From the IMG/VR virus record IMGVR_UViG_3300044646_001246: a stretch of DNA of 64,000 bases, one strand, 5' to 3'. Under the pieces are notes generated by a model. The model was given only the letters and a program-made list of their open reading frames with translations, ran no database searches and was not told the DNA's origin. The position numbers and the translations under genes were made by a program. The stretch comes from an uncultured virus (IMG/VR IMGVR_UViG_3300044646_001246). Lineage: Duplodnaviria; Heunggongvirae; Uroviricota; Caudoviricetes. Positions 9,368-9,453 of this stretch are shown here, in pieces (position 1 is the stretch's first letter; each line of letters begins with the position of its first letter).

Positions 9368-9453
9368 ATCGACCTGCCATCATCAGCGCCGAGCGGTCAA
9401 CCTCGGACGGACCAGACGCCCACAGCCCTCACTGTGAACGTCTGGTTTCGGCT
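9368..9453 (-). ncRNA. type II hammerhead ribozyme with loop I/3'-tail pseudoknot
   Basis: GCC-GAAA-stem III (ACCAGACG/CGUCUGGU)-GUC^-stem I-CUGAUGA-u-GGC; loop GUUGACC pairs with GGUCGAU. Confidence 0.8.

Follow-up and report, generated by a model that had tools for sequence, protein, structure and literature searches.

A pseudoknotted type II hammerhead ribozyme with one extra core uridine in a ribozyme-bearing gene cluster of an uncultured tailed phage

Introduction

Type II hammerhead ribozymes in which loop I forms a pseudoknot with the 3′ tail, arranged in clusters that flank prophage genes, are described in the accessible part of Perreault 2011 (PMC3088659). According to the same text, a triple of A. 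tumefaciens hammerheads gave the in vitro products expected if all three cut and was active in E. coli, while 4 of 18 consensus hammerheads failed to cut. A role in transcript processing is proposed there; the available sections of PMC6765202 and PMC6155905 call this role unproven. Additionally, three predicted type II hammerheads are reported as active in D. vulgaris cells in the accessible part of PMC8782182, and a string search of its supplement returned none of their sequences. Mixed clusters of twister and hammerhead ribozymes near phage genes are reviewed in the available text of PMC6765202.

The CChMVd hammerhead carries an extra A between A9 and G10.1. As far as the accessible part of PMC3705267 goes, which summarises De la Pena and Flores 2001, replacing this A by U made cleavage in trans 3-4 fold faster, and replacing it by C or G was harmful. 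The PK hammerhead (PDB 8YDC) has a different build, and a chemistry involving G12 and the G8 2′-OH is given for it in the available part of Zhan et al. 2024 (PMC11300833).

Here, we describe a hammerhead found in a stretch of 64,000 nucleotides from an uncultured virus of the Caudoviricetes (IMG/VR IMGVR_UViG_3300044646_001246), called the window below, and compare it with these systems.

Results

Anatomy and identification of the element

The minus strand of the window at 9453-9368 is a pseudoknotted type II hammerhead with one extra U in its core (Table 1). A first-pass annotation made from the letters alone had proposed this label. The positions it gave for the named elements agree with sequence and folding, and the label itself is borne out by the anatomy, the Rfam alignment and the covariation of relatives.

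The core consists of C3-U4-G5-A6-N7-G8-A9 and G12-A13-A14 (GAA at 9449-9447), with an NUH triplet at the cleavage site; we take GAAA at 9449-9446 to be G12, A13, A14 and A15.1 of the hammerhead nomenclature. In the minimum-energy fold of the isolated element three stems surround this core, loops close stems I and III, and stem II is open, which is the type II layout. The G10.1-C11.1 pair is G9378-C9450, displaced by one base from A9. Stem III has a pair probability of about 1.0 in all contexts folded, and that of stem II is 0.64 in folding calculations without a pseudoknot term.

Table 1. Features of the hammerhead and of its surroundings in the window
Feature	Position	Strand	Basis and remarks
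Upstream gene, 184 aa, function not assigned	9492-10046	minus	phrog_11104, E 1.2e-34
9-bp hairpin abutting the ribozyme 5′ end	9454-9479	minus	folding
Type II hammerhead ribozyme, complete element	9453-9368	minus	Rfam RF02276, descriptor, minimum-energy fold
Stem II, 5′ strand GCC	9452-9450	minus	sequence; pairs with GGC 9378-9376
Core GAAA	9449-9446	minus	sequence
Stem III hairpin	9446-9411	minus	16 pairs including G-U and A15.1-U16.1 (A9446-U9411)
GUC cleavage triplet	9412-9410	minus	sequence and Rfam alignment; predicted cut 9410/9409
Stem I hairpin	9409-9402 with 9393-9387	minus	7 pairs, bulged U9407
Loop I, 8 nt	9401-9394	minus	sequence, folding
Core CUGAUGA (C3-A9)	9386-9380	minus	sequence
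Extra U between A9 and G10.1	9379	minus	sequence
Stem II, 3′ strand GGC, then A	9378-9376, A 9375	minus	sequence
3′ tail, pseudoknot partner of loop I	9374-9368	minus	duplex -7.4 kcal/mol, register, covariation
Downstream gene, 106 aa, DUF6878-like	9024-9344	minus	GGAGG ribosome site before start 9344
DUF6915 gene, 117 aa	8674-9027	minus	PF21866, E 7.3e-48; overlaps the preceding gene's stop
Terminator-like hairpin and U run after DUF6915	8613-8647	minus	consensus scan
Twister-P5 ribozyme	8037-7974	minus	RF02684, 44.5 bits; begins at the stop codon of the 8652-8038 ORF
Twister-P5 ribozyme	7407-7338	minus	RF02684, 49.3 bits; begins at the stop codon of the ORF ending at 7408

An Rfam scan, which the first-pass annotation had proposed as a check, aligned the full length of the Hammerhead_II model (RF02276) to exactly 9453-9368, with a score of 32.7 bits that stays below the gathering score of 37, a curation cut-off that stands for no structural feature. 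For this reason the element is absent from a scan at the gathering threshold. The shortfall is probably due to the long stem III (16 pairs) and to the bulge in stem I. The match has an E-value of 0.0092 when the whole window is searched with 4227 families, where it ranks fourth in the window, and of 1.3e-4 when the search is confined to 901 nt.

A generic type II descriptor matched 9453-9368 and nothing else within the 64-kb window. That a motif this short was hit by chance is hardly credible. Dinucleotide shuffles of the window did yield a loose descriptor match in 4 of 200, but none of the 200 equalled the stem quality of the element; besides, the site is intergenic, lies near two other ribozymes and has the pseudoknot typical of the family, though the descriptor does not require one. 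Folded by itself, the 86-nt piece also has the hammerhead as its minimum-energy structure (z -2.76; 1 of 200 shuffles did as well). Neither Rfam nor the type II descriptor detected further hammerheads in the window, and a model built from 51 extra-U sequences, the window's included, gave elsewhere in the window short, partial matches of at most 18.8 bits.

The pseudoknot

Between loop I and the tail that follows stem II, more than the four pairs that mark the type II pseudoknot can form: up to 7 are possible in the family's register, which lies 8 nt before the core in the window as in 56 of the 70 relatives listed. The pairing itself is supported by compensatory variation. When metagenomes were scanned with the tail fixed and the loop left free, the loop read GACC in 70 of the 72 distinct strings with a GGUC tail among the matches listed, and GACU, the G-U version, in the other 2. 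In 69 of the metagenome strings listed, the distance from the GACC complement to the core was 8 or 9 bases. In the control, a GACC loop was present in just 10 of 219 ribozymes with other tails. Among the genome matches listed, the four tail bases pair in register in 106 of 128 strings; 300 swaps of their tails gave 42 on average and never more than 54.

Pairing was also followed in an unrefined alignment of 51 rows, made up of the window's hammerhead and 50 extra-U relatives kept after dereplication. There, the paired share of cells is 79%, while shuffles reach 60% and slid registers 32-44%. Two-sided changes occur at all 6 pseudoknot pairs; counted over the pseudoknot cells of this unrefined alignment, pairing stands at 65.5%. 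Stems I and III covary as well, and stem II, being fixed by the search pattern, is uninformative here.

The first-pass annotation had drawn the pairing with 7 bp. The complementarity is present, with 7 as its upper bound: the longest possible helix measures 5 bp in 52 of the 70 relatives listed, 6 in 10, 4 in 7 and 7 in 1. A 7-bp pseudoknot, possible on paper, is disfavoured because it would leave no linker base 5′ in the loop, and 5-6 bp are likelier for the window.

Folding in longer transcripts

Folding of longer RNAs provides counter-evidence. If the folded piece is extended into the downstream leader, or on the other side as far as the upstream stop, other nested folds are better by 5-7 kcal/mol and the probability of stem II goes to 0; this calculation does not score the pseudoknot, whose contribution may reach about 7 kcal/mol minus the loop costs. 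This might mean that the hammerhead is genuine but slow or conditional in its natural transcript, with the G/U-rich downstream leader, ribosome site included, competing with stem I and the pseudoknot; cutting would then depend on translation or on the speed of transcription and would work as a switch. We think this unlikely. Alternative folds do win by 5.1-7.1 kcal/mol in 4 of the 6 contexts that contain the whole ribozyme, 3 of these 4 by pairing ribozyme strands with the downstream leader, but the pseudoknot is absent from those energies, and transcription finishes the ribozyme 23 nt ahead of the start codon, so that the ribozyme can fold first. Moreover, with the 9-bp upstream hairpin alone added, the hammerhead is still the minimum-energy fold. 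This hairpin may shield stem II from mispairing with upstream RNA.

Abundance and optional nature of the extra U

The first-pass annotation regarded a 3-bp stem II with an insertion as a variant, which implies rarity. This part of it does not stand, as the form is abundant in phages and in bacteria of several phyla. We searched viral contigs with a pattern in which the GCC/GGC stem II, GUC and the core were fixed and A, C or U (G was excluded) followed A9. At least 116 loci were found, with 108 distinct strings among the matches listed; the extra base is U in 104 of these, C in 2 and A in 2. The same pattern without the extra base occurs at no fewer than 138 loci (150 strings among the matches listed). 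Extra-U patterns were also present at 126 or more metagenome loci and at 124 or more genome loci; judging by the titles of 80 of these at least 124 genome matches, the carriers include Clostridia, Planctomycetota, Streptomyces and Alphaproteobacteria. The samples are rich in related gut phages and indicate abundance, not frequencies. Abundance in all three collections rules out rarity of the extra-base form. Of 20 extra-U viral loci chosen from the at least 116, 15 pass the Rfam gathering score at the site of the pattern match (with up to 66.9 bits), 3 score 31-36 bits and 2 are unlisted at E 0.05.

The extra-U form is not new either. An oligonucleotide directed against A. tumefaciens HH3, given in the available supplement of PMC3088659, is complementary, by eye, to the third hammerhead of locus L515 (L515:1959-2026), and the other two hammerheads of this locus match the HH1 and HH2 oligonucleotides. 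L515 HH3 has a 3-bp ACC/GGU stem II, an extra U and a loop-tail pseudoknot, and scores 32.2 bits, under the Rfam cut-off; the accessible text of PMC3088659 makes no mention of this U. One extra base after A9 is known from CChMVd and HH3 to be compatible with activity. Our literature search, which took in few subscription papers, found no paper that presents the extra-U form as a subtype widespread among phages, and PMC544870 held nothing relevant to the A9 insertion.

For seven ribozymes that lack the U, a partner with the extra U was identified at 0.85-0.98 similarity. Since near-identical ribozymes occur with and without it, the extra U is optional. To compare the two forms we used 227 parses that passed a stem filter, dereplicated at 0.8 or 0.7. 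At 0.8, a pseudoknot of at least 4 pairs was present in 37 of 50 ribozymes with the extra U and in 45 of 106 without an insert (Fisher p 2.8e-4, with kin that are not independent); at 0.7, in 24 of 35 and 29 of 72, respectively (p 0.0075, with the same dependence among kin). A stem II longer than 3 pairs was seen in 8 of 50 extra-U ribozymes compared with 48 of 106 without insert. Because of this dependence among kin, we treat a tie between the U and the pseudoknotted build as a lead only. Many pseudoknotted ribozymes have no extra U, and a type I hammerhead (at locus L514) does have one.

A bolder reading would make the extra U a selected, U-specific tuner in hammerheads that combine a pseudoknot with a 3-bp stem II; it would then act as a one-base rate dial that sets the levels of neighbouring phage genes. 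It draws on the predominance of U among the strings listed, on the pseudoknot enrichment and on gain or loss of the U between near-identical ribozymes, and it holds in addition that most gaps of the window's gene cluster would carry an RNA processing signal (one hammerhead, two twisters and three matching hairpins). We put it forward tentatively and consider it doubtful.

The extra U also creates AUGAUG in frame with the next gene of the window. A start codon within the core was considered and rejected, because in relatives AUGAUG is in frame in 13 of 31 and open in 9 of 31, which is chance level, and because homologues of the 106-aa protein begin at the later Met, that of 9344.

Gene neighbourhood

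The hammerhead is indeed upstream of the gene pair that the first-pass annotation had named as DUF6878/DUF6915-like and placed about 25 nt away; the measured gap to the start at 9344 is 23 nt. The DUF6915 assignment is direct, through PF21866. The DUF6878 assignment is indirect: the window's 106-aa protein has no Pfam match, and PF21798 (DUF6878) is matched by 6 of 6 of its homologues with E-values of up to 1 (best 3.1e-5). The literature search found no paper on DUF6915 or DUF6878. The terminator-like site behind the pair comes from a scan that returned 14 sites in the region against 11.1 expected and is weak on its own.

The stop codon of the upstream gene lies 39 nt before stem II, not flush with it as in most relatives. 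In the same frame, a further stop codon has its last base at 9453, directly against stem II, which is the usual arrangement among relatives. Among the 33 of 50 extra-U relatives with enough flank (17 had too little), an ORF of at least 50 codons ends -3 to +6 nt from stem II in 23, compared with 225 of 6600 for random placement. A ribosome site and an ATG 17-58 nt later are found in 31 of the 36 relatives with enough flank on that side (14 were without). Another ribozyme is present within 1.5 kb at 6 of the 20 extra-U loci scanned.

No close relative of the locus was reached through nine DUF6915 loci, none of which had a ribozyme match (0/9), or through the upstream 184-aa protein, for which no relatives were confirmed in viral contigs. 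The missing conserved orthologue, together with the low Rfam score and the stem I bulge, could point to an inactive relic left by the decay of a mobile or ancestral ribozyme. However, the core is unchanged, stems and pseudoknot are all intact and in the family's register, and L515 HH3 has an equally low Rfam score; we therefore regard decay as improbable.

Two twister-P5 ribozymes downstream

The first-pass annotation described the hammerhead of this locus and missed two twister-P5 ribozymes downstream of it. Both exceed the RF02684 gathering score of 37.6 over the full model, and both end ahead of a ribosome site. They lie 1.3 and 2.0 kb downstream of the hammerhead on the same strand and flank the ORF ending at 7408. 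We consider these neighbours the best clue to the function of the hammerhead.

Two twisters around one ORF could also suggest that the ribozymes make ends for ligation, yielding circular or re-joined single-gene RNAs such as the 632-nt piece between them, which would carry 5′-OH and cyclic-phosphate ends if the twisters cut where we presume. This is very improbable. The 3′ piece of the hammerhead ends at a terminator-like site and not at a second ribozyme, no RNA ligase family is present among the window proteins scanned, and circular RNAs were sought and none found according to the accessible part of Perreault 2011 (PMC3088659).

Ribozymes were seen side by side at other loci as well. At L514 a twister-P5 (1692-1749) and the type I extra-U hammerhead (about 2001-2058), which is absent from the Rfam listing, flank one small ORF. 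L002 has a twister-sister (1220-1303), an extra-U type II hammerhead (1493-1560) and a RAGATH-5 (2564-2615) within 1.4 kb on one strand. Two single viral contigs, represented by loci L133-L135 and L189-L192, hold 8 and 5 type II hammerheads, respectively, within about 4.3 kb.

Phage context and other RNA-like signals

The hammerhead is located in a minus-strand gene run that extends from a DUF932-like ORF to an AAA protein and includes DUF6915 and a DUF4942 methyltransferase-like gene; we infer that this run is an early region. The window seems to cover the greater part of a tailed-phage contig; the longest contig that contains the 106-aa downstream protein measures 64,236 bases. Its genes also include an integrase, a serine recombinase, a helicase, a nuclease and a primase-like gene. 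A terminase candidate (24171-25940) and a major capsid protein candidate (21521-22687) are language-model look-alikes resting on that one line of evidence; neither has a Pfam or PHROGs match, and a tblastn search of GenBank phages with the terminase candidate gave no match. The serine recombinase, with two resolvase domains (18430-19923, plus strand), and a weak integrase match (15106-16350, plus strand) suggest that the phage is temperate. A tRNA gene (43824-43900, plus strand) adjoins an ORF (43962-44285) with a CsrA domain (E 1.8e-17); CsrA is an mRNA-binding regulator, here in a phage that carries ribozymes. Low-complexity CAC/ACC repeats occupy 14077-14610, between gene blocks.

Three long imperfect hairpins were noticed on the minus strand (10901-10958, 6400-6457 and 4548-4605), with a shorter look-alike at 3486-3505. 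The stem sequences of the three differ, whereas the C-UGCG-G cap is the same and the internal loops are alike; z is about -5 to -6, and each hairpin sits shortly ahead of a gene start. They have no Rfam match, and one consensus pattern gave 0 matches in viral contigs. They may serve as sites of RNase III-type processing, or else represent a motif that has yet to be described.

Additionally, a 20-base motif occurs in five minus-strand copies (4621-4640, 8654-8673, 10407-10426, 12593-12612 and 12910-12929), against 0.02 expected for a pattern that was derived from those same copies. Two copies begin at the stop codon of a gene, and one is just before a terminator-like site. The motif is possibly a promoter, operator or antitermination signal.

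Discussion

Taken together, it is likely that the element is an active type II hammerhead which, from an intergenic gap of a minus-strand gene cluster of a tailed phage, cuts a multi-gene transcript into blocks. The parts of this reading differ in strength. That the window copy cleaves is very likely; its activity is supported because the same architecture is present in A. tumefaciens HH3, a member of the triple reported as active in the accessible part of PMC3088659. That mRNA processing is the purpose of the hammerhead seems to us the better bet, with less assurance.

The following course of events is conceivable. Stems III and I would fold as hairpins during RNA synthesis, and the 3-bp stem II would close the junction. 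The 3′ tail would pair with loop I over about 5-6 bp and so keep stems I and II alongside each other. Cleavage after GUC, at 9410/9409, would then be carried out by the standard core, with G12 as the base and the G8 2′-OH as the acid; the extra U would be a tolerated, optional bulge outside the active site that possibly enhances the rate. The cut would part the upstream gene from an RNA of about 800 nt with two genes (DUF6878-like and DUF6915), a length predicted because a terminator-like site follows DUF6915. This RNA would carry a 5′-OH end at 9409 and a structured leader. Hammerhead and twisters together would split the transcript into blocks, each with its own stability and translation.

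The window hammerhead is one more copy of a large known family. Natural pairs distinguished by nothing but the extra U permit a clean test of its effect on the rate, and the cluster, which bears on the purpose of phage ribozyme clusters in general, predicts exact RNA ends: a 5′-OH at 9409 and twister cuts that we take to lie near 8014/8013 and 7382/7381. Cultured hosts of the same subtype would be better test beds, because the phage of the window is uncultured.

Of the described systems, PDB 8YDC shares a hammerhead core and a pseudoknot with the window element. As far as the available part of PMC11300833 goes, its pseudoknot replaces helix II, whereas the window retains helix II and has the pseudoknot as an added contact; this rules out the PK-hammerhead (pistol-like) subclass. 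The plus-strand hammerhead of CChMVd has one extra base at the same core position and is active with U there. It differs in being a viroid ribozyme with loop-loop contacts, a natural A and a role in rolling-circle replication.

Like the clusters reviewed in PMC6765202, the window combines different ribozymes on one strand (two twister-P5 and one hammerhead within 2.1 kb); the genes flanked in the window, in contrast, are uncharacterised. With the hammerheads of RF02276 it has in common the open-stem-II permutation, the full core, a short stem II and the pseudoknot between loop I and the tail, as well as an intergenic phage location in a cluster of ribozymes around small genes of no assigned function. 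It departs from them in its stem III of 16 pairs, its stem I bulge and the one base more after A9.

A. tumefaciens HH3 shares the extra U, the 3-bp stem II, the pseudoknot, a similar Rfam score (32.2 versus 32.7 bits) and the setting in a ribozyme cluster. It has an ACC/GGU stem II and no spacer A before the tail, and its neighbours are two hammerheads and ardA, while those of the window hammerhead are twisters and DUF6878/DUF6915.
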